Source: Patescibacteria group bacterium (lineage in GTDB: Bacteria; Patescibacteriota; Patescibacteriia; UBA9934). Taken from it: 64,000 nt of DNA. Below are positions 6,578 to 43,893 of this stretch, piece by piece. The translations under genes and the position numbers were made by a program. The stretch spans positions 20,542 to 84,541 of the forward strand of contig JBAYHK010000004.1 of assembly GCA_041666145.1 (NCBI GenBank), written 5' to 3'. A model generated the notes under the pieces. It did no database searches, was not told the DNA's origin, and was given only the letters and a program-made list of their open reading frames with translations. Numbering within the stretch: the stretch's first letter is position 1; every line of letters starts with the position of its first letter.

Positions 6578-7672
6578 TTACGCACCTTGGGGAAAACGGC
6601 TTGCAATTGCACGCCGCAAATCATCAAGACCTTCACCAGTTACTGCAGAAACAGCAATCGCATTTTTCGGCACAGGAAATGACATTGAACCTAATGCATC
6701 AACCTTGTTGTACACACGAAGTCGTCGATTCTCCGGCACACTGAGCTCTGTCAAAATATCATCAACGACTTCAATCTTTTCATCTCGTTTATCATCTGCC
6801 GCATCAATAACGTGCAAGAGTACATCCGCACCAAGCGCCTCTGATAACGTCGATCGAAATGCTGCAATTAAACTTGGAGGCAACCCCTGAATAAATCCAA
6901 TCGTATCTGAAAGCAAGGCGGTTCCCTCAAGATCTGGCAAATACATTGTTCCAACACGAGTATCGAGTGTGGCGAACAAAGCGTTCGCTGCGTACTCCTT
7001 TCGTTTTGTTAAAGCGTTCAATAACGATGTTTTCCCAGCATTCGTATATCCAACCAATGCCACAGTTCGTTCCCCCATTCTCGCTCTCCGTTCTCTCTGC
7101 AAATCTCTCACTCCTTGATACTTCTCTAATCGCTTTAAAATCGCGCGCTCCTGATCTCGCAAATGACGCTTCATGGCTTCTGTATTTCCCTCTCCGCTTC
7201 CACCACGTGTTCCCGTTCCACCTCGCTGTCTTCCAAGCTCCTCACTCATGTTGTAAATGCGTGGCCCCATGTGTCGCAGTCGAGCAAGTTCAATTTCAAG
7301 TTTTGCCTCTGCAGTGCTTGCATGCTTTTCAAAAATATTCAAAATCAAATCAATCCTATCCCACACTTTCATCTTTGCAGGTCGCAACAATTCTTCTAAA
7401 TTAAAAATCTGCTGTGGTTTAAGCGGATGATTCACCACAAACAAATCCGCGCCAAGTTCTTTCGACTCCGCGATCAATTCTTCTACGCGTCCCTTGCCAA
7501 TAAACGTCTGATAGTCTGGTTTTGCTTTTCGTTGAATTGTTTTTACAACGACTGCACCTCCATACGTTCGAACAAGTTCTTCAAGCTCCGTCATTCTATC
7601 TTCTGCCTCACGTTTATCTGCAGAAAAATGAATAAGATCGGCAAGGACTGCTTTGTGAATATGCGTCGACAT
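6578..7672 (-). CDS. hflX: GTPase HflX
   Basis: G1 motif GYTNAGKTSLLNALT, DTIGF, NKVD; HflX-type N-terminal domain; start overlaps yqeY stop (TAATG). Confidence 0.9.
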   Translation of the reverse strand: MSTHIHKAVLADLIHFSADKREAEDRMTELEELVRTYGGAVVVKTIQRKAKPDYQTFIGKGRVEELIAESKELGADLFVVNHPLKPQQIFNLEELLRPAKMKVWDRIDLILNIFEKHASTAEAKLEIELARLRHMGPRIYNMSEELGRQRGGTGTRGGSGEGNTEAMKRHLRDQERAILKRLEKYQGVRDLQRERRARMGERTVALVGYTNAGKTSLLNALTKRKEYAANALFATLDTRVGTMYLPDLEGTALLSDTIGFIQGLPPSLIAAFRSTLSEALGADVLLHVIDAADDKRDEKIEVVDDILTELSVPENRRLRVYNKVDALGSMSFPVPKNAIAVSAVTGEGLDDLRRAIASRFPQGA

Positions 7673-8121
7673 TATTCTTTTTTTAAAATGTTATCGACTG
7701 CTGCTTTTATCCGTGACCCATCTGCAAACTCTTTCAAGTCTGCCATAAGCGCACCCATGGCCTTCCCAACGCTTGCCATGTCTGTAATCCCAAGTTCCGC
7801 AAGCTTTGTACGAACCTTTGCTTCAAGCTCTTCTTGGCTCATCTGCTCTGGCAAATACTTTTCCAAAATCGCAATCTCCTCACGTGCAGCGACTACCAAA
7901 TCTTCCCGTGCTGCAGAAACAAACGAATCTAACCCGTCCTTCAGCTTCTTCACGTCACTCTTAATCGTTGCCATTACCTCGGCGTCGTCGAGCTCCTTCC
8001 CAACATCGATCGCCTTGTTCTTGAGTGACGCAATAAGCATCCGCACCGTGTCGAGCGTTCTCACGTCCTTATTCTTCATTGCCGTCTTCATGTCCTCACG
8101 GATCTGTTCGTATAAAGTCAT
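7672..8121 (-). CDS. yqeY: GatB/YqeY domain protein
   Basis: MTLYEQIREDMKTAMKNKD...YLPEQMSQEEL; ORF extends to 8163 but conserved start is MTLYEQ. Confidence 0.8.
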   Translation of the reverse strand: MTLYEQIREDMKTAMKNKDVRTLDTVRMLIASLKNKAIDVGKELDDAEVMATIKSDVKKLKDGLDSFVSAAREDLVVAAREEIAILEKYLPEQMSQEELEAKVRTKLAELGITDMASVGKAMGALMADLKEFADGSRIKAAVDNILKKE

Positions 8122-8217: not shown

Positions 8218-8469
8218 TTATCGACGGGTTGGCTTTCGCAAATCCTCTTCTTTAACCTTTCCTGTTTTCAATAAGTATTCGCGACGTTCACCCATGGTCA
8301 AGCTTCGCAGCTTGCTCTTATGAGTCTTATTCTTCTTTGCTGTTTTTGCAAAATATCGTCCAGCACGGACGTCGAGCGCTTTTCCACTCTGTTGCAAACG
8401 ACGGCTAAAGCGACGAAAAACCGCTTCAAAGCTCTCACCTTTTTTTCTTTTTACTTCAATATCAGACAT
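8218..8469 (-). CDS. rpsU: 30S ribosomal protein S21
   Basis: 83 aa, basic, ...ESFEAVFRRFSRRLQQSGKALDVRAGRYFAKTAKKNKTHK. Confidence 0.85.
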   Translation of the reverse strand: MSDIEVKRKKGESFEAVFRRFSRRLQQSGKALDVRAGRYFAKTAKKNKTHKSKLRSLTMGERREYLLKTGKVKEEDLRKPTRR

Positions 8470-8628
8470 ATTTTTGTTCCTCCCTTCAGGAATGTGAGGA
8501 TGATATCAGATCATAAAAAACCAAGCAAGATGGCCCTAAATAGAAAAGCCCCCGGACACCATCTTGCGATGGATCCGAGGACTCATGTGCCATGCAGCCG
8601 TTGCTGCATGGGCCGTGCCGAACTGGAC

Positions 8629-10665
8629 TCAGTAGAGATCGATGACCGCGTGCCCGTCGTATCCCCATCCCCAGTCGAAGGGCAGAGGGGAAATGGAAAC
8701 GCCTTCGAGGGTGACATCTTCACAATGATCGACGTCCTGGTAGAGCCACGTACCGTCACCAAAGTCGTGCTCCTCTCCGTAGGTCCCATCCGCGTCGTTG
8801 TCGAAGGGGCCGTTCAGAGCGACCGTGTGGCCGTGCACGAACAGGAAGTCGGTACAGAGCATGCCGAAGCCCTGCGCATAGCCCGGGAAGTCCCAGTCTG
8901 GGTCGAGGCTGCCGTCAGGAATGACGGTCCAGTCACGAATCCAGAGCTGCCAGGATACGCTCATGAGACCAGTCACCGGAGTAACGCAGATCTCCAAGGT
9001 ATCGGAGACATTCGCCAAGCCGTCGCAGTTGTCGTCCACGCCGTTCATGGACACTTCTTCGGCGTCAGGGTTGATCTCGGCATCCAGGTCGTTGCAGTCG
9101 CCGTCTTCCACGGTGAAGCCGTCGCTATCGGCGTCGGCGTCGTCGCAGGTCAGATCTTCGTCGACGCTGTCATCGCAGTCATCGTCCATGTCGTTGCAGA
9201 CTTCGTCGGCGGCGGGGTTGATGCCGGAATTTCCGTCGTCGCAGTCGGTGCTGTCGGAGACGTAGCCCTCGGGCGCGGAACAGGCAATCGCCGGAGTCCC
9301 GGAGCCGTAACCGTCATCGTCCATGTCGAGATAGAAGGAGGACATGAGCCCTTCATCCACCGCGCCGTCACAGTCGTCGTCGATACCATTGCAGGCTTCG
9401 GGGGCGCCGTTGTAGATGGCGGAGTCGGTGGGCTGGCAGTCCGTGATGTCCGGATCGCCGTCACCGTCGGTGTCGACCTCGGGCTCGGGTTCGCAGACAT
9501 CTCCTTCGTCGACGGCGGTGTCGCAGTCGTTGTCGATGGTGTCGCAGATCTCGGTGGCGCCGGGGTTGATGGCGGAGAGGAGGTCGTTGCAGTCGGTGTC
9601 GTCGGCGATGAAGCCGGTGGGAGCACCGTCACAGGTAGATTCCGAATTGGTGCTGTCGCCGTAGCCATCGCTGTCGCTGTCCGCGTACCAGGTGGCAAAG
9701 GGCAAGCCCTCGTCGATCTCGCTGTCGCAGTTGTCATTCACGCCGTTGCAGACTTCGGAGGCGCCGGGGTAGATGGCGATGTTGGAGTCGTTGCAGTCGG
9801 TGCTGTCGGAGACGTAGCCTTCGGGCGCAGAGCAGGCGGCAACGGAAACATCGATGTCCCCATAACCGTCCGTATCCGTGTCCCTGTAGAAGGCGTAGAG
9901 CTCAACTCCACTGTCCGCGGCGTCGACGAGCAGGTCACAGTCGTTGTCGATGGTGTCGCAGATCTCGGTGGCGCCGGGGTTGATGGCGGAGAGGAGGTCG
10001 TTGCAGTCGGTGCTGTCGGAGACGTAGCCTTCGGGCGCGGAGCAGGCGAGCATCATCATATCGGGGTCGCCGTAGCCGTCATCGTCATCGTCCACGAAGA
10101 AAGTGCTCGTGACGTCCTCATCGACGTCGCCATCGCAGTTGTCGTCGAGGCCGTTGCATTCTTCGGTGGCATCGGGATTGGTCTCGATGTCATCGTCGTC
10201 GCAGTCGCCGTCGATGGTGGCGTAGCCTTCGGTTCCGCAGGCCATGAAGCTTTCGCCGGTGCCGTAGGAATCGCCGTCGCTGTCGGTGTAGACAGGAACG
10301 TCGGCGTCCGTGACGTCAGCACTTTCATCGTTGCAGTCGCCGAAGTTGGTGCCCTCGGTCGAAGTGACTTCAATCCATTCTTCTTCCGGAGTGCCCGCGT
10401 AGATGCAGAAGCAGCCGGTGTGGAACGGATCCGAGACGCTCGCGTTGACGTAGGTGTCGCCGTCGGCGTCGGGGCAGTAGGCCTTGAGGGGGTCGGCGGA
10501 ACCGCTCACCACAAGGGCGAGACAGTCTTCAACGGTGGCGCCAGCCGGGAGATCTTTTCCCGTGGCATTGGTGCCAGGGATGTCGTAGATGTCATCGGTC
10601 TTGGTGGAACAGCCCATGAGGGCGAGGAGAAGGAGCGTAGCTCCGGAGATACTGGTGGATTTCAT
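8629..10665 (-). CDS. Secreted lipoprotein (678 aa) with about 8 tandem DxDCND..INPGAxExCDxxDNDCDxxxDE putative metal-binding (MopE-like, PF11617-type) repeats; markedly GC-rich
   Basis: MKSTSISGATLLLLALMGCS lipobox; repeated ...DCNDLLSAINPGATEICDTIDNDCD...; the gene is visibly GC-rich relative to flanking genes (GC not computed). Confidence 0.85.
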   Translation of the reverse strand: MKSTSISGATLLLLALMGCSTKTDDIYDIPGTNATGKDLPAGATVEDCLALVVSGSADPLKAYCPDADGDTYVNASVSDPFHTGCFCIYAGTPEEEWIEVTSTEGTNFGDCNDESADVTDADVPVYTDSDGDSYGTGESFMACGTEGYATIDGDCDDDDIETNPDATEECNGLDDNCDGDVDEDVTSTFFVDDDDDGYGDPDMMMLACSAPEGYVSDSTDCNDLLSAINPGATEICDTIDNDCDLLVDAADSGVELYAFYRDTDTDGYGDIDVSVAACSAPEGYVSDSTDCNDSNIAIYPGASEVCNGVNDNCDSEIDEGLPFATWYADSDSDGYGDSTNSESTCDGAPTGFIADDTDCNDLLSAINPGATEICDTIDNDCDTAVDEGDVCEPEPEVDTDGDGDPDITDCQPTDSAIYNGAPEACNGIDDDCDGAVDEGLMSSFYLDMDDDGYGSGTPAIACSAPEGYVSDSTDCDDGNSGINPAADEVCNDMDDDCDDSVDEDLTCDDADADSDGFTVEDGDCNDLDAEINPDAEEVSMNGVDDNCDGLANVSDTLEICVTPVTGLMSVSWQLWIRDWTVIPDGSLDPDWDFPGYAQGFGMLCTDFLFVHGHTVALNGPFDNDADGTYGEEHDFGDGTWLYQDVDHCEDVTLEGVSISPLPFDWGWGYDGHAVIDLY

Positions 10666-10900
10666 GAAGAACCTCTGTCGAAAAGTGCACCACGCTAGTG
10701 GCGTCTCTGTTGTTGACGAATGCAGCCCGCTACTTTAGCGAGGCCGCATGTGTAGTCCAGTTCAGTTGGGAAAGATCCCAGCCGTTCCAGGCTTCAATTC
10801 ACGAAAATGTTAAACATTCGCGCAAGTTGAAGCCTGAAACAGGAGGGGTTAGGCTATCAGATTTAGGAAGTTCTGTCAAGAAGAAACCGAATTTTAGAAA

Positions 10901-23800: not shown

Positions 23801-23857
23801 CGCCAAAAATGCTATCATTTCCCGTCCGCTGTGTTCCTCAAACCCCAGGAGTTCTCA

Positions 23858-24418
23858 ATGGAATCAACCGTGATCGATGCCCTACGGTCCCTTCTTTGCC
23901 GGCGCCTCGGTATCCCAGTTCCCTACTCCAAACTCTTCGGAGAATCAGAGTTGGGAAACTGCCGCGGAGAAGTAGTGGAAGGAGACGCGCTTGCTCCCCC
24001 GACGAATGTTCCAGACTGGTCCAGATGGCTCAATCTTCTTCACTGGGCATGGCTTGCCATGTTTATGTGGAAGAAGTACGCCATCTTCCAGGTGTGTGAC
24101 GGCTCTGACCCATACCGCGTCATGTTCCGTACGGATGTTCACCACAATCATCGCGATCCCCACGCCTGGACGGTCATGCCGCAAAGGATCCGTACAAGAT
24201 TCGTGGCAATGAAAATCGGTCATGAGCCAGTCGAATTCGCAATGATCGATCAGCGCGGAACCCTCATCTTCGCGTGGCTCAAGGAATGTATCTTTGGAAA
24301 ACGTGCGGTTCTTGACATGATTCGGCGCTATATCACCATAGAGCTCACGAGAGCTGAGAGCATTGGCGACCTCGGCAGGGTCATCGTCAAACCCAGCCGC
24401 TACCTCACGATCCTCTAG
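23858..24418 (+). CDS. Hypothetical protein (GC-rich, plus strand; track ORF starts 23831)
   Basis: 195-aa ORF, no recognizable domain; followed by GC hairpin 24431..24455 acting as plus-strand terminator. Confidence 0.45.
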   Translation: MESTVIDALRSLLCRRLGIPVPYSKLFGESELGNCRGEVVEGDALAPPTNVPDWSRWLNLLHWAWLAMFMWKKYAIFQVCDGSDPYRVMFRTDVHHNHRDPHAWTVMPQRIRTRFVAMKIGHEPVEFAMIDQRGTLIFAWLKECIFGKRAVLDMIRRYITIELTRAESIGDLGRVIVKPSRYLTIL

Positions 24419-37781: not shown

Positions 37782-38117
37782 TTACATTTTTATTTCGATA
37801 TCGACACCTGCTGGAAGATTGAGGCTCATGAGCGCGTCAATCGTACGTTCTGTTGGACTCACAATGTCGATGAGACGCTTGTGAACACGCATTTCGTACT
37901 GATCTCTGGAAGTCTTATCAATGAACGTTGAACGGTTCACTGTAAAACGTCGAATCTCGGTTGGCAATGGAACAGGGCCGAGAACTTCTGCGCCGCTTCG
38001 CTCTGCAGTCTTAATGATCGTCTGCGTTGCTGAGTCTATGATCTTATGATCATACGCACGAATCTTGATCCGAATACGCTGTTTTACGTCTTCTTTTGTT
38101 TTTATCGCGTCAGTCAT
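37782..38117 (-). CDS. rpsJ: 30S ribosomal protein S10
   Basis: [17 protein letters not shown]. Confidence 0.9.
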
Positions 38118-38187: not shown

Positions 38188-39375
<1,188 letters not shown>

Positions 39376-39514
39376 ACGTGGAAATTATGCCCGGCGTCTT
39401 GGAATGAGCACCGATGGCGTGAGTGATTATTTTCGTGAAGAAAAATGTGGCGAGAGTGTAGCAAAACCAAGAAAATCACGCAAGTCTCCCTATACACCAA
39501 GAAATAGATTCCGC

Positions 39515-39976
39515 TCAATCAATGCGTTCAAGGTAGAACTCCTCTTCCCCACCACTAGAAACCCGAGGCATCTTTTGCATGCCTTCCTTAGCTTTTTCTT
39601 TAATTTCAACGACTTCCGGTGCGGTCCATAACGACTTCAATGCCTCTTCATCAACATCAGCCTCATCCAGCACAGATTCCTCAATCTCGTCCCCGCTAGC
39701 AATTGGTGCGTCCTCAATCTGAATATCTTCAATCTCATCTTCCTTGCTCTCCGACATCCAAGACTCTAAGGCGGCAACTTCCATCTGCTCTTCTGTGGCA
39801 CCCTCCGATGAAACCTGGAGCTCCCCCATCTCAAGCGCCCCGTCAATCAGCAACTCATATTCATTCAATGGCAAAATCACCAGTGGCTCTTCTTTTCCCT
39901 CTTCATCCGTAACAATAATCCTATCCCCCGTTTTCCGAGCTAGCCGCAACAACCGAGAAAAATGATTATTCGCCAT
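39515..39976 (-). CDS. Hypothetical highly acidic protein (153 aa) inserted between tuf and fusA
   Basis: Glu/Asp-rich (EDEIEDIQIEDAP...EESVLDEADVDEE), no known domain. Confidence 0.55.
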   Translation of the reverse strand: MANNHFSRLLRLARKTGDRIIVTDEEGKEEPLVILPLNEYELLIDGALEMGELQVSSEGATEEQMEVAALESWMSESKEDEIEDIQIEDAPIASGDEIEESVLDEADVDEEALKSLWTAPEVVEIKEKAKEGMQKMPRVSSGGEEEFYLERID

Positions 39977-40128
39977 ATGAAGGCATCTTAGGGAGAGAGG
40001 GAGAAAAGGGCAAGAATCTTTACTCTTTCACAAATTTATGCTATCATTTTTCGTTATTTTCAAGGGCGGCTTGCTCAATATTCATAAGAAATTGTGAGTA
40101 GCGAGCAACCCTGTCCGGAGAATAACCC

Positions 40129-40647
40129 ATGCTCACGCTCGCCCTTTTCCTCCTTCCTCTCATCCACTCCGCCAACGCCGACGCCTACGTCGTGGGATTC
40201 AAGGCCAATATCGCCGAGAACAACGTCATGCTACTAGCCGCACCCGAGGACCTCTGGTTCTCAGGAAATGGCGGCGGCGCGGTCACGTTCGAGTCACATA
40301 GAACCAGGTTCATGGACTCTAATTCCAGACTCGCACTTTCTGCCGGATGGAACCACCACGGTGGGTTCACCTTCGAAGGGAACTGGCGCATACGCGACCA
40401 GTTCTCGAGCTCAACCACCTTAGTCGCCGATCTCGTCGGATTCAGCATTGGCAGTGGAATACTGTCGCCGAACGACGAAAAACAACTAATGTTCATGACT
40501 GGCGGAGGCATCGAAATTCCTGTCATAAAAGGCGTCGATGTCCAGCTGATCGGCAAAGTCGGCATGGGAACAGCACGCGATGACAACCACGACTGGTTCA
40601 TCACCAACACGACATCTATCTACCTCGGCGCGTCACACGACTTCTGA
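40129..40647 (+). CDS. Secreted hypothetical protein (172 aa) with signal peptide and C-terminal aromatic residue; GC-rich; plus-strand island inside the str operon
   Basis: MLTLALFLLPLIHSANA signal peptide; alternating hydrophobic beta-like pattern; ends ...YLGASHDF; flanked by its own GC hairpin terminator. Confidence 0.6.
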   Translation: MLTLALFLLPLIHSANADAYVVGFKANIAENNVMLLAAPEDLWFSGNGGGAVTFESHRTRFMDSNSRLALSAGWNHHGGFTFEGNWRIRDQFSSSTTLVADLVGFSIGSGILSPNDEKQLMFMTGGGIEIPVIKGVDVQLIGKVGMGTARDDNHDWFITNTTSIYLGASHDF

Positions 40648-40677
40648 CCGAGAGCAAATAGACCAGTAACATGCTCG

Positions 40678-40745
40678 CCCCGCGCGAGTCGACAAGCCCC
40701 CAACTCGGGAGCCCGTCGTCTCGACGCGGGGTTTGTCTTCTCCAA
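40678..40745 (+). terminator. Terminator of 40129..40647 (long GC-rich hairpin plus T-rich tail)
   Basis: CCCCGCGCGAGTCGAC...GTCTCGACGCGGGG then TTTGTCTTCTCC. Confidence 0.55.
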
Positions 40746-40772
40746 ATCAAAACGGCCCCTTTCGAGGCCGCC
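40742..40772 (-). terminator. Terminator downstream of fusA
   Basis: Minus-strand CGGCC-UCGAAAGG-GGCCG followed by UUUUGAUUUGG. Confidence 0.55.
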
Positions 40773-40798
40773 TTGAATCTTATTCTATAAACAACGAG

Positions 40799-42886
40799 CT
40801 ACTTCCCTGTGCGCTGCTCAACAATCGCTTTTGCGACGTTGTTTGGCACTTCCATATACTGACCAAACTCCATGGAATAACTTGCTCGACCCTGGGTCAT
40901 AGAGCGAAGAGATGTGGAGTAGCCGAACATTTCTGCAAGTGGAACAAGGGCCTTTACGAACTTGATATTTCCACGGTCACCCATTTCTTGAATCTGGCCG
41001 CGCTTTGAGTTCAAATCGCCGACCACGGATCCCATGAATTCATCTGGAGTGACTGCTTCGACTTTCATGACTGGCTCAAGAAGCACAGGCTGCGCCTTCT
41101 TAACTGCCTCTTGAAATGCGAGAGAGCCCGCCATTTTGAAAGCTGCTTCGTTCGAGTCAACATCGTGGTACGAACCATCGAAGACCGTTGCCTTGATGTT
41201 GATCAATGGGAACCCCGCGATAACACCTCTATCCATAGCTTCACGCGCACCTTTTTCAATTGCTGGAATGTATTCGCGTGGAACTGCGCCGCCCTTCACT
41301 TCGTCGAAGAACTCAAAGTTCTTTGCGGCAGGATCTGTATTTGGTTCAACACGCAACCACGCATGACCGTACTGACCTCGACCACCAGATTGCTTAATGT
41401 ACTTTCCTTCACCTTCTGCAACGCCACGAATGGTTTCACGATACGCAACCTGCGGACGACCAACGTTTGCTTCAACGTTGTATTCTCGGCGCATTCGATC
41501 AACGATGATTTCAAGATGCAGCTCACCCATACCAGCAATAATGGTTTGGTTTGAATCTGGATCTGTTGAAACATGGAATGTTGGATCTTCTTCTGCAAGC
41601 TTTTGAAGCGCGATTGCCATCTTTTCCTGGTCTGCTTTCGTCTTCGGCTCGAGTGCCTGCGAGATGACCGGCTCTGGGAAAGTAATCGATTCAAGAATCA
41701 CAGGATGATCTGGATCACACAACGTATTTCCCGTTGCTGTGTTCTTCAATCCCACAGCTGCTGCAATTTCCCCAGCGAACACTTCTTCTACGTCCTCTCG
41801 ACTATTTGCATGCAAACGAACGATTCTGGAAATACGCTCCTTATCTCCAGTTGCTGAGTTCAAGACGTAAGTTCCAGCTTTCAACGAACCTGAATACACG
41901 CGGAAGAATGCGAGCTTTCCAACGAATGGGTCTGCAGCAATTTTGAACGCAAGCGCAGCAAAAGGTGCGGTATCTTTCGGCAAACACTCAATAATTGTCT
42001 CAGCATCATCTGGGTCAAAACCCTTCATCGCTGGAACATCTAATGGAGATGGGAGGTAATCAACAACGGCGTCGAGCATCTGCTGAACACCTTTATTCTT
42101 CAACGCTGAACCGCAAAGAATTGGGAAAATTTTCAGTGCAATAACTCCCTTTCGAAGAGCGACTTTCAATTCTGGAACTGGAATATCCTCTCCGCCAAAG
42201 AATCGCTCAAGCAATCCCTCATCTTCTGCAACAATCGCTTCCACAAGCTTTGAACGATACTCGTCTGCCTTTGCTTTATATTCTTCTGGAATTTCAACTT
42301 CATCAATCGTTTTTCCTTGGTCATCGTGATAGATAAATGCCTTGCGAAGAAGAAGGTCGATAATGCCGACAAAATTTCCTTCTATTCCGATCGGCAACTG
42401 AATTGGATACGCATTCGGCGCCAAACGCTTATGAATCGATGCAATGTCCTTATAAAAGTCTGCACCAGTTCTGTCTAATTTGTTAATAAAACACACACGA
42501 GGCACATGATACTTATCCGCTTGGTGCCAAACAGTTTCAGACTGTGGCTCAACACCAGCAACACCGTCGAATACGGTAACGCCACCATCGAGAACACGAA
42601 GCGAACGCTCAACTTCAACAGTGAAGTCAACGTGGCCAGGAGTGTCAATAATGTTAATGCGATGGTCTTTCCAGAAACATGTTGTCGCAGCTGCAGTGAT
42701 CGTGATTCCACGTTCCTGCTCCTGCTCCATCCAGTCCATAGTCGCCTCACCTTCATGCACCTCACCGATTTTGTGCTTCTTTCCGGTGTAGAACAAAACA
42801 CGCTCAGTTGTTGTGGTCTTTCCTGCGTCAATATGCGCAATAATTCCTATATTTCGTACCCGTTCCAATGGATAATCGCGTTGCAT
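40799..42886 (-). CDS. fusA: Elongation factor G
   Basis: 695 aa; [20 protein letters not shown]. Confidence 0.95.
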
Positions 42887-42900
42887 AAAAAATGAATGGT

Positions 42901-43368
42901 TTAGCGAGCAAGGTGTGCAAACGCTCGGTTTGCTTCTGCCATACGCTGCACATCAAGCTTCTTCTTTACAGCGTCACCCTCATTCTTAGAAGCAGAAATG
43001 AGCTCTTCTGCAAGCTTTTCACACATTGGGCGCCCTTTCTTTCCTCGTGCTGCGCCAAGAATCCAACGGTATGCCAAGGCATAACGACGGTCGCCGCGCA
43101 CTGGCATTGGAACCTGATAGTTCGCTCCACCAACACGCTTTGATTTCACTTCAACTGCTGGAGTGACATTCTTAATCGCGTTATCAAAAACTTCCATTGG
43201 ATCCTGGCTCGTTTCCGTTGCGATAATTTCAAACGCATCGTACACAATGCCGCGAGCAATAGACTTCTTTCCACTTTCCATGACGTAATTGACTAACTTG
43301 GCAACCAAAACGCTCCCGTATTTTGCATCAGGAGCGAGATTGCGCTTTGGAGCGGCTTTACCACGCAT
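42901..43368 (-). CDS. rpsG: 30S ribosomal protein S7
   Basis: 155 aa; conserved S7 pattern. Confidence 0.9.
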
Positions 43369-43449: not shown

Positions 43450-43893
43450 CTACTTCTTCTTTGCAACTGCCTTACCTGCCTTTGGACGCTTTGTTCCGTA
43501 CCGTGAACGGCCACGATTGCGACCTTCCACGCCTGTTGCGTCGTATCGACCTCGAACAATGTGGTAACGAACACCTGGCAAGTCTTTCACACGACCGCCA
43601 CGAATCATGACGATAGAGTGTTCCTGCAGTCCATGGCCTTCGCCAGGAATGTATGCAGAGACTTCCGTTCCATTGCTCAAACGCACACGAGCAATTTTAC
43701 GCAAAGCCGAGTTTGGCTTTTTCGGAGTCATTGTGGTGACTTTCACACAGACACCGCGCTTGAATGGAGCACCTTTGCTCAAAATCGTGCGCTTACGGTG
43801 CAACGAGTCGAGCGTATATTGCATTGCCGGAGACTTGCTCTTCGACTTTGCTTTCGTGCGACCCGTGCGGATGAGTTGGTTGATCGTTGGCAT
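43450..43893 (-). CDS. rpsL: 30S ribosomal protein S12
   Basis: [12 protein letters not shown]...[10 protein letters not shown]. Confidence 0.95.

Follow-up and report, generated by a model that had tools for sequence, protein, structure and literature searches.

In bacteria the genes rpsL, rpsG, fusA and tuf form a highly conserved string, and the question raised by the locus described here is what has come to stand between fusA and tuf. The locus lies in a stretch of 64,000 nucleotides from the genome of a Patescibacteria group bacterium (GenBank assembly GCA_041666145.1, contig JBAYHK010000004.1, positions 20,542 to 84,541), which we call the window and from whose first letter all positions are counted. 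Two genes occupy the interval, namely ORF153, an open reading frame (ORF) for 153 amino acids on the strand of fusA and tuf, and ORF172, an ORF for 172 amino acids on the opposite strand. An earlier reading of this DNA, made without database searches (the sequence-only reading), had proposed that the two genes are one acquired cassette inserted into the string. The interruption by two genes is borne out by the gene coordinates, and the cassette holds for one gene of the two: ORF172 is compositionally foreign and lineage-restricted, whereas ORF153 is native and stands in the order fusA...ORF153-tuf clade-wide, in 68 of 68 genomes. We consider it likely that the interval consists of two unrelated elements of very different age, the native ORF153 and ORF172 as cargo of a variable slot.

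The distribution of ORF153 was surveyed by a pattern-based scan in which each species of GTDB r232 was represented by one genome. Relatives are encoded at 68 loci (numbered with the prefix L), which correspond to 68 species-level Patescibacteria genomes whose titles are mostly Candidatus Uhrbacteria, with a few Falkowbacteria, Minisyncoccota and Paceibacter. Wherever the contig is long enough, the gene stands on the same strand within the fusA-to-tuf interval, and tuf is found downstream in 67 of the 67 loci whose contig extends past ORF153. The distance from the ORF153 stop to the tuf start ranges from 70 to 2223 bp with a median of 128 bp (n = 67), and that from the fusA stop to the ORF153 start ranges from 8 to 7852 bp with a median of 1.7 kb (n = 54). 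Exact-protein look-ups independently recover the same contexts, and one ORF153 locus was detected per genome. In a profile search the family comprises 108 clusters at 90% identity, which, where a source names them, are called "hypothetical protein" except for one NCBI record named "Phd/YefM family antitoxin"; we found no description of the family in the searchable literature. The composition of ORF153 is native: the GC content at its third codon positions (GC3) is 0.49 (z = +0.6 relative to the 67 long ORFs of the window), and that of fusA, 0.42, is ordinary too. The ratio of nonsynonymous to synonymous divergence (dN/dS) between the window and L001 is 0.10. By these sequence comparisons ORF153 is a real gene, vertically inherited, specific to Uhrbacteria-related Patescibacteria and fixed just upstream of tuf. 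A clade-wide arrangement with native composition is what the sequence-only reading itself had named as evidence against acquisition, so ORF153 is not part of an acquired cassette.

Many of the metagenome-assembled genome (MAG) records that carry an ORF153 locus (e.g., L009, L010 and L012) are titled "uncultured Gammaproteobacteria bacterium"; their elongation factor Tu (EF-Tu) is 75–94% identical to that of the window, and the titles look like placeholder taxonomy. At two loci only, L006 and L009, a 327-amino-acid protein with a HELGH zinc-metalloprotease-like motif is encoded (L006 4018-5001), which belongs to no Pfam family. This ORF and the annotated ORF153 homologue share 1 base at the start of the latter, and the likely true start is the Met of MANHH, 51 nt downstream.

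The minus-strand gene order of the window, taken from its ORF list, is rpsL, rpsG, fusA, ORF153, tuf, rpsJ and then the S10 cluster. The genes and the terminator that closes the rpsL-rpsG-fusA unit are the following:

43450-43893, minus strand: rpsL (ORF list)
42901-43368, minus strand: rpsG (ORF list)
40799-42886, minus strand: fusA, encoding elongation factor G (EF-G, 695 amino acids), the final gene of the rpsL-rpsG-fusA unit (ORF list; homologues in relatives have the full EF-G Pfam domain set)
40747-40776, minus strand: intrinsic terminator of fusA, a 13-bp stem followed by the U-rich tract UUUGAUUU (strand folding; kept in L001, L002 and L078)
40129-40647, plus strand: ORF172, 172 amino acids, between fusA and ORF153 (ORF list)
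39515-39976, minus strand: ORF153, acidic protein of 153 amino acids (ORF list)
38188-39375, minus strand: tuf, encoding EF-Tu (395 amino acids), followed by rpsJ and the S10 cluster (ORF list; homologues have the EF-Tu Pfam domains)
37782-38117, minus strand: rpsJ (ORF list)

Both ORF153 and ORF172 appear in NCBI as hypothetical proteins of a "Patescibacteria group bacterium" MAG. A terminator belonging to fusA had been predicted at 40742-40772, and the folded hairpin at 40747-40776 agrees closely with that prediction. The order rpsL-rpsG-fusA...tuf-rpsJ of the E. coli str operon (rpsL-rpsG-fusA-tufA) is retained in the window. In E. coli secondary tufA promoters lie within fusA, and tuf of the window likewise has a dedicated promoter besides transcription from upstream. 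The differences from the E. coli operon are the terminator after fusA, the clade-specific gene with its own promoter that is fixed before tuf, and the separation of fusA by a variable slot of 0–8 kb in which opposite-strand genes are frequent. In a canonical contiguous str operon fusA and tuf are adjacent and co-transcribed; here the 822 bp from fusA to ORF153 contain a terminator and a gene on the opposite strand, and ORF153 itself also stands before tuf. This interrupted arrangement is found clade-wide.

Variability is confined to the space that separates the fusA terminator from the ORF153 promoter. This slot is empty in about 10 loci and elsewhere contains from one to eight ORFs, frequently on the opposite strand; these counts are approximate, as greedy longest-ORF calling took some spurious ORFs and missed the frame of a GNAT gene in L004. 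The cargo includes GNAT acetyltransferases, a PrmA/DOT1-like S-adenosylmethionine-dependent methyltransferase (9 loci), an APH-family kinase (9 loci), a TrmB-type regulator (7 loci), a uridine-kinase-like P-loop protein and many singletons. The enzymes recurring in the slot (L004-L076) are of kinds that modify proteins or small molecules, and it is speculation on our part, prompted by their location, that they are modifiers of translation components. No integrase or transposase was present in any slot sampled. At least in the compact locus L064 the fusA terminator precedes the ORF153 promoter, and in L031, titled Falkowbacteria, the ORF153 homologue starts 8 bp after fusA and has no promoter. 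The slot is a natural site of gene turnover inside a highly conserved bacterial gene string, which is relevant to synteny-based binning and phylogeny.

The history of ORF172 in the slot can be followed in the related loci. In L001 and L078 the order is ORF153 on the minus strand, then ORF172 and a GNAT gene on the plus strand, then fusA on the minus strand. The GNAT gene is absent from the slot in the window, L002 and L003, and it is the divergent neighbour of ORF153 in relatives that have no ORF172 (L004, L008, L012, L014 and L018). Direct repeats of ~95 bp (607-701 and 1449-1541, 85% identical) flank the ORF172 unit of L001, and each repeat consists of the ORF153 promoter and the first 18 codons of that gene. 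A second repeat pair of ~25 bp in L001 (~1426-1452 and ~2192-2218) brackets the second 95-bp copy together with the GNAT gene and adjoins the fusA terminator. The window keeps one copy of the 25-bp sequence (40733-40757) exactly at the junction, which is consistent with a deletion of the GNAT gene. The repeat pairs of L001 suggest homology-assisted rearrangement within the slot. As to an integrative cassette, there are no repeats around ORF172 in the window, none in L078, and no mobility gene in any slot sampled. The most economical account places the arrival of ORF172 in the divergent GNAT/ORF153 spacer before the window, L001 and L078 lineages split, so that their common ancestor already had both genes, and the GNAT gene was lost afterwards on the way to the window. 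A palindromic element, AACCCTTA(A)GC..GGTCAACGCTAAGGGTT, recurs near the GNAT start and the ORF153 promoter (L014 ~6930-6975, L016 ~7930-7975 and L078 1468-1500).

Composition sets ORF172 apart from its surroundings. The sequence-only reading had called the gene GC-rich, and codon analysis agrees: its GC content is 0.553, compared with 0.476 for the window, and its GC3 of 0.69 is the highest among the 67 long window ORFs (z = +3.2). In the window, L001 and L078 the GC3 lies ~0.1-0.25 above that of the neighbouring genes, making ORF172 an outlier in all three lineages. The family is also exceedingly rare. Four distinct members were found in ~15 billion proteins, all of them at the fusA-tuf site, and when 1.84 billion representatives were scanned exhaustively with a HMMER profile, one further relative only was returned. 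A scan of metagenome contigs yielded the already known contig only, and no relative occurred among viral contigs, phage records and plasmids. ORF172 has no match in Pfam (E <= 10, all four members), NCBIfam, PADLOC, PHROGs or the PDB sequences (E <= 10). It is 52% identical to its counterpart in L078, whose EF-G is 89.5% identical. The synonymous divergence (dS) of ORF172, 0.41-0.60, is similar to that of fusA (0.50) and ORF153 (0.66), and because of this similarity ORF172 can be taken to have diverged in place together with its neighbours. We considered a recent transfer that replaced ORF172 by another allele and rejected it, since the dS matches that of the flanking genes. What weighs against the account of ORF172 as imported cargo is that its GC3 has remained high despite long residence, which simple transfer followed by amelioration does not account for.

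ORF172 carries a complete set of predicted expression signals of its own:

40019-40047, plus strand: promoter-like site, TTTACT, 17 nt and a TG-extended TATCAT (a consensus match only; the extended -10 is kept in L001 and L078)
40053-40126, plus strand: 5' leader hairpin of 74 nt (-34.9 kcal/mol, z = -6.4)
40677-40732, plus strand: GC-rich terminator hairpin followed by UUUGUCUUCUCC (near-identical in L001, L002 and L078)

A distance of 5 bp separates the promoter-like site from the -35 element of the ORF153 promoter, which points the other way. The leader hairpin begins at about +1 and pairs the Shine-Dalgarno sequence GGAGA (40117-40121) with an upstream UUUUC. It is kept in L001 and L002, and the leader of L078 has the same fold (z = -6.0). 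In the leader consensus 1 of 30 pairs has a compensatory change and several have one-sided changes. Between the window and L078 the leader is 74% identical, compared with 63% for the coding sequence and 38% for synonymous sites. The leader may act as an RNA thermometer or as a gate on translation. The terminator hairpin, which the sequence-only reading had noticed as a long GC hairpin belonging to the gene, is confirmed by folding against shuffled sequences (centroid energy -38.8 kcal/mol, z = -5.5, a stability matched by 0 of 200 shuffles). With its GC3, its four members and its promoter, leader and terminator, ORF172 is indeed a compositionally foreign, lineage-restricted and self-contained unit. 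As slot cargo it combines a predicted promoter of its own, a hairpin that occludes the Shine-Dalgarno sequence, a coding sequence with a signal-peptide-like start and a strong terminator, and it evolves fast yet under constraint, with its translation probably gated by the leader hairpin. Its interest is narrower than that of ORF153 and lies in a rare, fast-evolving, putatively secreted protein with a structured, Shine-Dalgarno-masking leader.

The N-terminus of the ORF172 protein is hydrophobic and closes with A-x-A in all four members, with a putative cleavage site after ANA at residue 17. It contains no Cys, so the protein is not a lipoprotein. The mature part would comprise 155 residues with 12.9% Gly and 11% aromatic residues, Tyr being low. 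Judged from these features, the most likely default reading is a secreted or envelope/wall-associated, beta-rich protein. Two observations speak against that reading: the putative signal peptide has no basic n-region, and the AlphaFold2 prediction from an alignment of three sequences reached a predicted local distance difference test score (pLDDT) of 29.6, an unusable model.

An outer-membrane-style barrel had been suggested for 40129..40647, with AlphaFold proposed as a check, and neither the unusable model nor the profile and PDB searches confirm that barrel. In its most specific form the suggestion is that ORF172 encodes a small, ~8-stranded outer-membrane-type barrel derived from a diderm donor and either kept as a relic or used on the membrane of a host or target. 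We regard this as doubtful, while granting that several features agree with it. Small outer-membrane barrels such as OmpX, the OmpA N-domain and OMP_b-brl resemble ORF172 in mature size, in a signal-peptide-like N-terminus (here with the conserved A-x-A) and in Gly-rich turns; the aromatic content fits as well, the low-confidence model shows strands of 14-15 residues, and the foreign GC3 would suit a donor gene. The C-terminal aromatic noted in the sequence-only reading is present in three of the four members, which end in ...LG[AV][SL][HY]DF and thereby resemble the G-x-x-aromatic-x-F beta-signal of outer-membrane proteins (...G-x-x-[YH]-D-F), but the fourth, P0026, ends in ...LRLSHTL and has no terminal aromatic. 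The alternating-hydrophobic strands claimed at the same time are only weakly above chance (z = 1.87, a value reached by 80 of 2000 shuffles). Unlike known small barrels, ORF172 shows no detectable sequence or profile similarity to any outer-membrane protein family at E <= 10 or to any PDB entry, its Tyr content is low, and no diderm homologue was found among the 1.84 billion representatives. In hhalign comparisons the family scored a probability of 0.9% against OmpA-TM and 0.4% against OmpX. The host is, moreover, presumed to be monoderm: the few characterised cells of the candidate phyla radiation (CPR) described so far are monoderm (PMC8871954).

Compared with ORF172, the older element of the interval offers more to build on. 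Conservation in the ORF153 family is confined to the first ~45-50 residues and the last 11, which in the window correspond to the following segments:

39827-39976, minus strand: N-domain of ORF153, residues 1-50, Phd/YefM-like (Pfam, AlphaFold2, Foldseek)
39518-39553, minus strand: C-terminal tip of ORF153, GGEEEFYLERID (family conservation)

The consensus of the N-domain is M....l.RlL.L.rkTGDrlivTD..G..p.V.m.Ld.YE.L.d, and GEEQFYLEP[IL][ED] stands at the extreme C-terminus, near-invariant, in 66 of 71 locus-derived members. Between the two lies a linker that varies from ~50 to 160 residues within the family. The protein is Glu/Asp-rich, as the sequence-only reading had stated, with 43 D+E among 153 residues and an isoelectric point (pI) of 4.1; across the family the pI is 4.05-5.5. 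The linker contains subclade-specific, Trp-centred motifs, namely PDIWxxMKP together with GETWD (GETWDxxxL), PPKREIPLWKAP, and, in the subclade of the window, DEEALKSLW (residues 105-118 of the window protein); further examples are found in L029, L033 and L071. These sequence motifs suggest multivalent short linear motifs additional to the C-terminal tip.

The N-domain resembles antitoxins of the Phd/YefM type. The Pfam profile PhdYeFM_antitox (PF02604) matches residues 2-62 (E = 7.4e-6, 26.1 bits) and is matched by 18 of 22 family members at E <= 0.01; TIGR01552 scores 13.4 bits, with a cut-off of 20.8. AlphaFold2 orders residues 1-50 only, as a helix-strand-strand-helix unit (pLDDT 77-89), together with a short helix at 110-117 in the DEEALKSLW motif. 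The four best Foldseek matches of the N-domain in the PDB are all Phd/YefM proteins (3k33_D, 2a6q_B, 4zlx_A and 6l8e_A), with a probability of 0.93 and a root-mean-square deviation of 2.3 A for 2a6q_B and a target-normalised TM-score of 0.63 for 4zlx_A. A profile search of the PDB with the ORF153 family returned noise only. Common to ORF153 and these antitoxins (PF02604; 3k33, 2a6q, 4zlx, 6l8e) are the alpha-beta-beta-alpha N-module of ~45 residues, seen in both the profile match and the fold, a disordered acidic C-terminal region with a conserved tip of a partner-binding type, and a small gene with its own promoter. To judge by profile and predicted fold, the ORF153 family probably works like Phd/YefM antitoxins and descends from them.

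The gene that follows ORF153 is, unlike in Phd/YefM systems, tuf and not a toxin gene. No toxin gene lies downstream of ORF153 in any of the 67 loci, and the Fic/Doc motif is absent from the 954 kb made up by the window and the loci. The family thus has no adjacent toxin, the defining mark of a toxin-antitoxin module, and behaves like a housekeeping gene. We hold it very probable that ORF153 is a native, conserved, Phd/YefM-like gene without a toxin. One may still ask whether it is a working antitoxin whose toxin is encoded elsewhere or arrives from outside, e.g., an EF-Tu kinase of the Doc type, in which case it would protect EF-Tu rather than regulate it. The match of the N-domain in sequence and fold, the acidic disordered tail with its conserved tip and the single NCBI record with an antitoxin name all agree with this, and so does the biochemistry of the classical pair, in which Doc, the partner of Phd, is an EF-Tu kinase that is bound by the acidic C-terminal peptide of Phd (PMC10728895). 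We nevertheless think it unlikely: the gene after ORF153 is tuf at every locus whose contig reaches that far, ORF153 is found syntenic, clade-wide and at one locus per genome, unlike the patchy and mobile toxin-antitoxin modules, and the tail of 50-160 residues is far longer than antitoxin tails, which have roughly 20-40 residues.

The design of ORF153 also recalls that of the single-stranded DNA-binding protein (SSB). In SSB a folded N-domain is joined through a disordered linker to a conserved C-terminal tip that is both acidic and hydrophobic, such as DDDIPF. ORF153 shares the bipartite design, in which conservation is limited to the N-domain and the last ~11 residues and the linker varies in length and sequence, and its tip is likewise acidic with embedded aromatic and hydrophobic residues. 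Unlike the OB fold of SSB, the N-domain of ORF153 is Phd/YefM-like and unrelated.

Taken with its position, this anatomy allows a model in which ORF153 is a domesticated Phd/YefM-type module composed of the N-domain, the acidic disordered linker and the conserved tip. The N-domain would dimerise and thereby anchor the protein, perhaps helped by binding to an operator at the promoter of ORF153 itself or of tuf, and the tip of the tail would dock onto a highly conserved partner in the manner of antitoxin tails or SSB tips. Because the position before tuf is fixed, a translation component would be the likeliest partner, with EF-Tu as the first candidate. We advance this role as partner and regulator tentatively, as a possibility and not as the expectation. 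That EF-Tu in particular is the partner, an idea drawn from gene position and analogy, seems to us rather unlikely, and we say the same of the fully specified version in which a leaderless-translated ORF153 dimer binds EF-Tu or another core translation component through its SSB-like acidic tail, with the Trp-centred motifs and the tip, and tunes either tuf/S10 expression or EF-Tu activity.

For ORF153 and for tuf alike, upstream alignments identify a predicted promoter:

39985-40013, minus strand: ORF153 promoter of the sigma70 type, -35 TTGCCC at 40013..40008, 17-nt spacer, -10 TAAGAT at 39990..39985 (upstream alignment)
39455-39483, minus strand (39483..39455): tuf-proximal promoter, TTGCGT, 17 nt, TGc-TACACT (invariant across 13 aligned loci)

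Between the end of the ORF153 -10 element and the ATG lie 8 nt, and a Shine-Dalgarno sequence is absent. A strict pattern TTGnnn-N16/17-TAnnnT located 8-10 nt before the start codon is found in 43 of the 68 loci, most commonly as TTGACA with TAAGAT or TAAAAT, compared with a chance rate that we estimate at about 1% per sequence. Because the -10 nearly abuts the ATG, the ORF153 mRNA is predicted from this geometry to be probably leaderless. The tuf promoter starts ~30 nt past the ORF153 stop and would leave a tuf 5' untranslated region of ~72 nt; ahead of the tuf ATG no Shine-Dalgarno sequence is obvious. There is no hairpin terminator in the spacer between ORF153 and tuf, so the ORF153 transcript is expected to read into tuf, and on these predictions tuf can be reached both from the ORF153 promoter and from its own. 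Two candidate elements were rejected. A polypyrimidine tract upstream of ORF153 had been considered as a regulatory element and is the promoter spacer, and the ORF153-tuf spacer had been considered as a structured RNA, folds no better than expected (z = -0.8) and contains the promoter instead. A search of Rfam at E <= 1 over 39370-40800 returned nothing.

The proposed origin and role of ORF153 have to be weighed against a number of contrary points. The Pfam score lies under the gathering score of 29.8, the first beta-strand of the Phd/YefM fold is absent, and the Foldseek matches have weak E-values of 0.3-0.9. DNA binding is disfavoured by the net acidic charge of the N-domain (pI 4.7), and no operator palindrome is evident in the alignment of ORF153 promoters. 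Gene position and analogy are the whole of the case for EF-Tu as the partner, and with a promoter to itself tuf need not be regulated by ORF153. The leaderless start is predicted from promoter geometry, and one ORF153 subclade has a leader of ~20-26 nt instead.

Its fixed place beside tuf and its docking-type C-terminal tip make the ORF153 family a testable candidate for a clade-specific factor tied to EF-Tu or to ribosomal-protein expression. The translation machinery of CPR/Patescibacteria is reduced and unusual, and their lineage-specific genes are mostly uncharacterised. If the domesticated-module model is true, ORF153 would be a previously unrecognised lineage-specific translation factor or regulator, and it would exemplify the recruitment of an antitoxin fold to a housekeeping locus. 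The leaderless geometry predicted at 43 of the 68 loci provides in addition a handle on the usage of transcription starts in uncultivated bacteria.

Two further alternatives concern the genes themselves. One is that ORF172 is a non-functional, spurious or decaying ORF in a GC-rich spacer, as might be thought of an orphan without a predicted fold whose protein is 65-70% identical where EF-G is 99% identical (the value for the fusA product of L001) and whose antisense frame is open as well. We consider this very improbable. The ORF is intact in four diverged lineages with one in-frame indel, and the elements around it are conserved too, from the promoter through the leader hairpin and Shine-Dalgarno sequence to the terminator. 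Differences between the window and L001 at codon positions 1, 2 and 3 number 46, 18 and 56, so that second positions are the most conserved, and dN/dS is 0.34 for this pair and 0.28-0.42 across the four lineages, with a synonymous excess at Fisher p from 2e-4 down to 8e-11. By these substitution patterns ORF172 is a real gene under purifying selection. The antisense ORF of 141 amino acids (40185-40610) was tried as a gene in its own right and rejected, as its second codon positions would be highly variable; it is open because it shares the third positions of ORF172, at which G or C gives no antisense stop.

The other alternative, that ORF153 and ORF172 together form one small, recent cassette that split an ancestrally intact str operon, draws on their adjacency in divergent orientation with promoters 5 bp apart and on the foreign composition of ORF172, but it has next to no probability left, being refuted by the synteny survey, in which ORF153 with its native GC3 stands at the site in 68 species-level genomes, ORF172 occurs only in its few lineages, and other ORF153-bearing genomes have an empty slot or different genes.

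Outside the interval, two observations were made in the window. The minus-strand ORF at 53025-54341 (438 amino acids) matches the C-terminal domain of RNA polymerase alpha only (residues 343-400), and the absence of a match to the alpha N-terminal domain at E <= 0.001 is unusual for rpoA. Raised GC3 values of 0.59-0.64 are found in three other ORFs, at 23831-24418, 56638-57375 and 8320-10698 (all on the plus strand), none of which has a Pfam family; these may be further lineage-specific or foreign genes, and the ORF at 8320-10698 may instead be a mis-call relative to an overlapping ORF on the minus strand.

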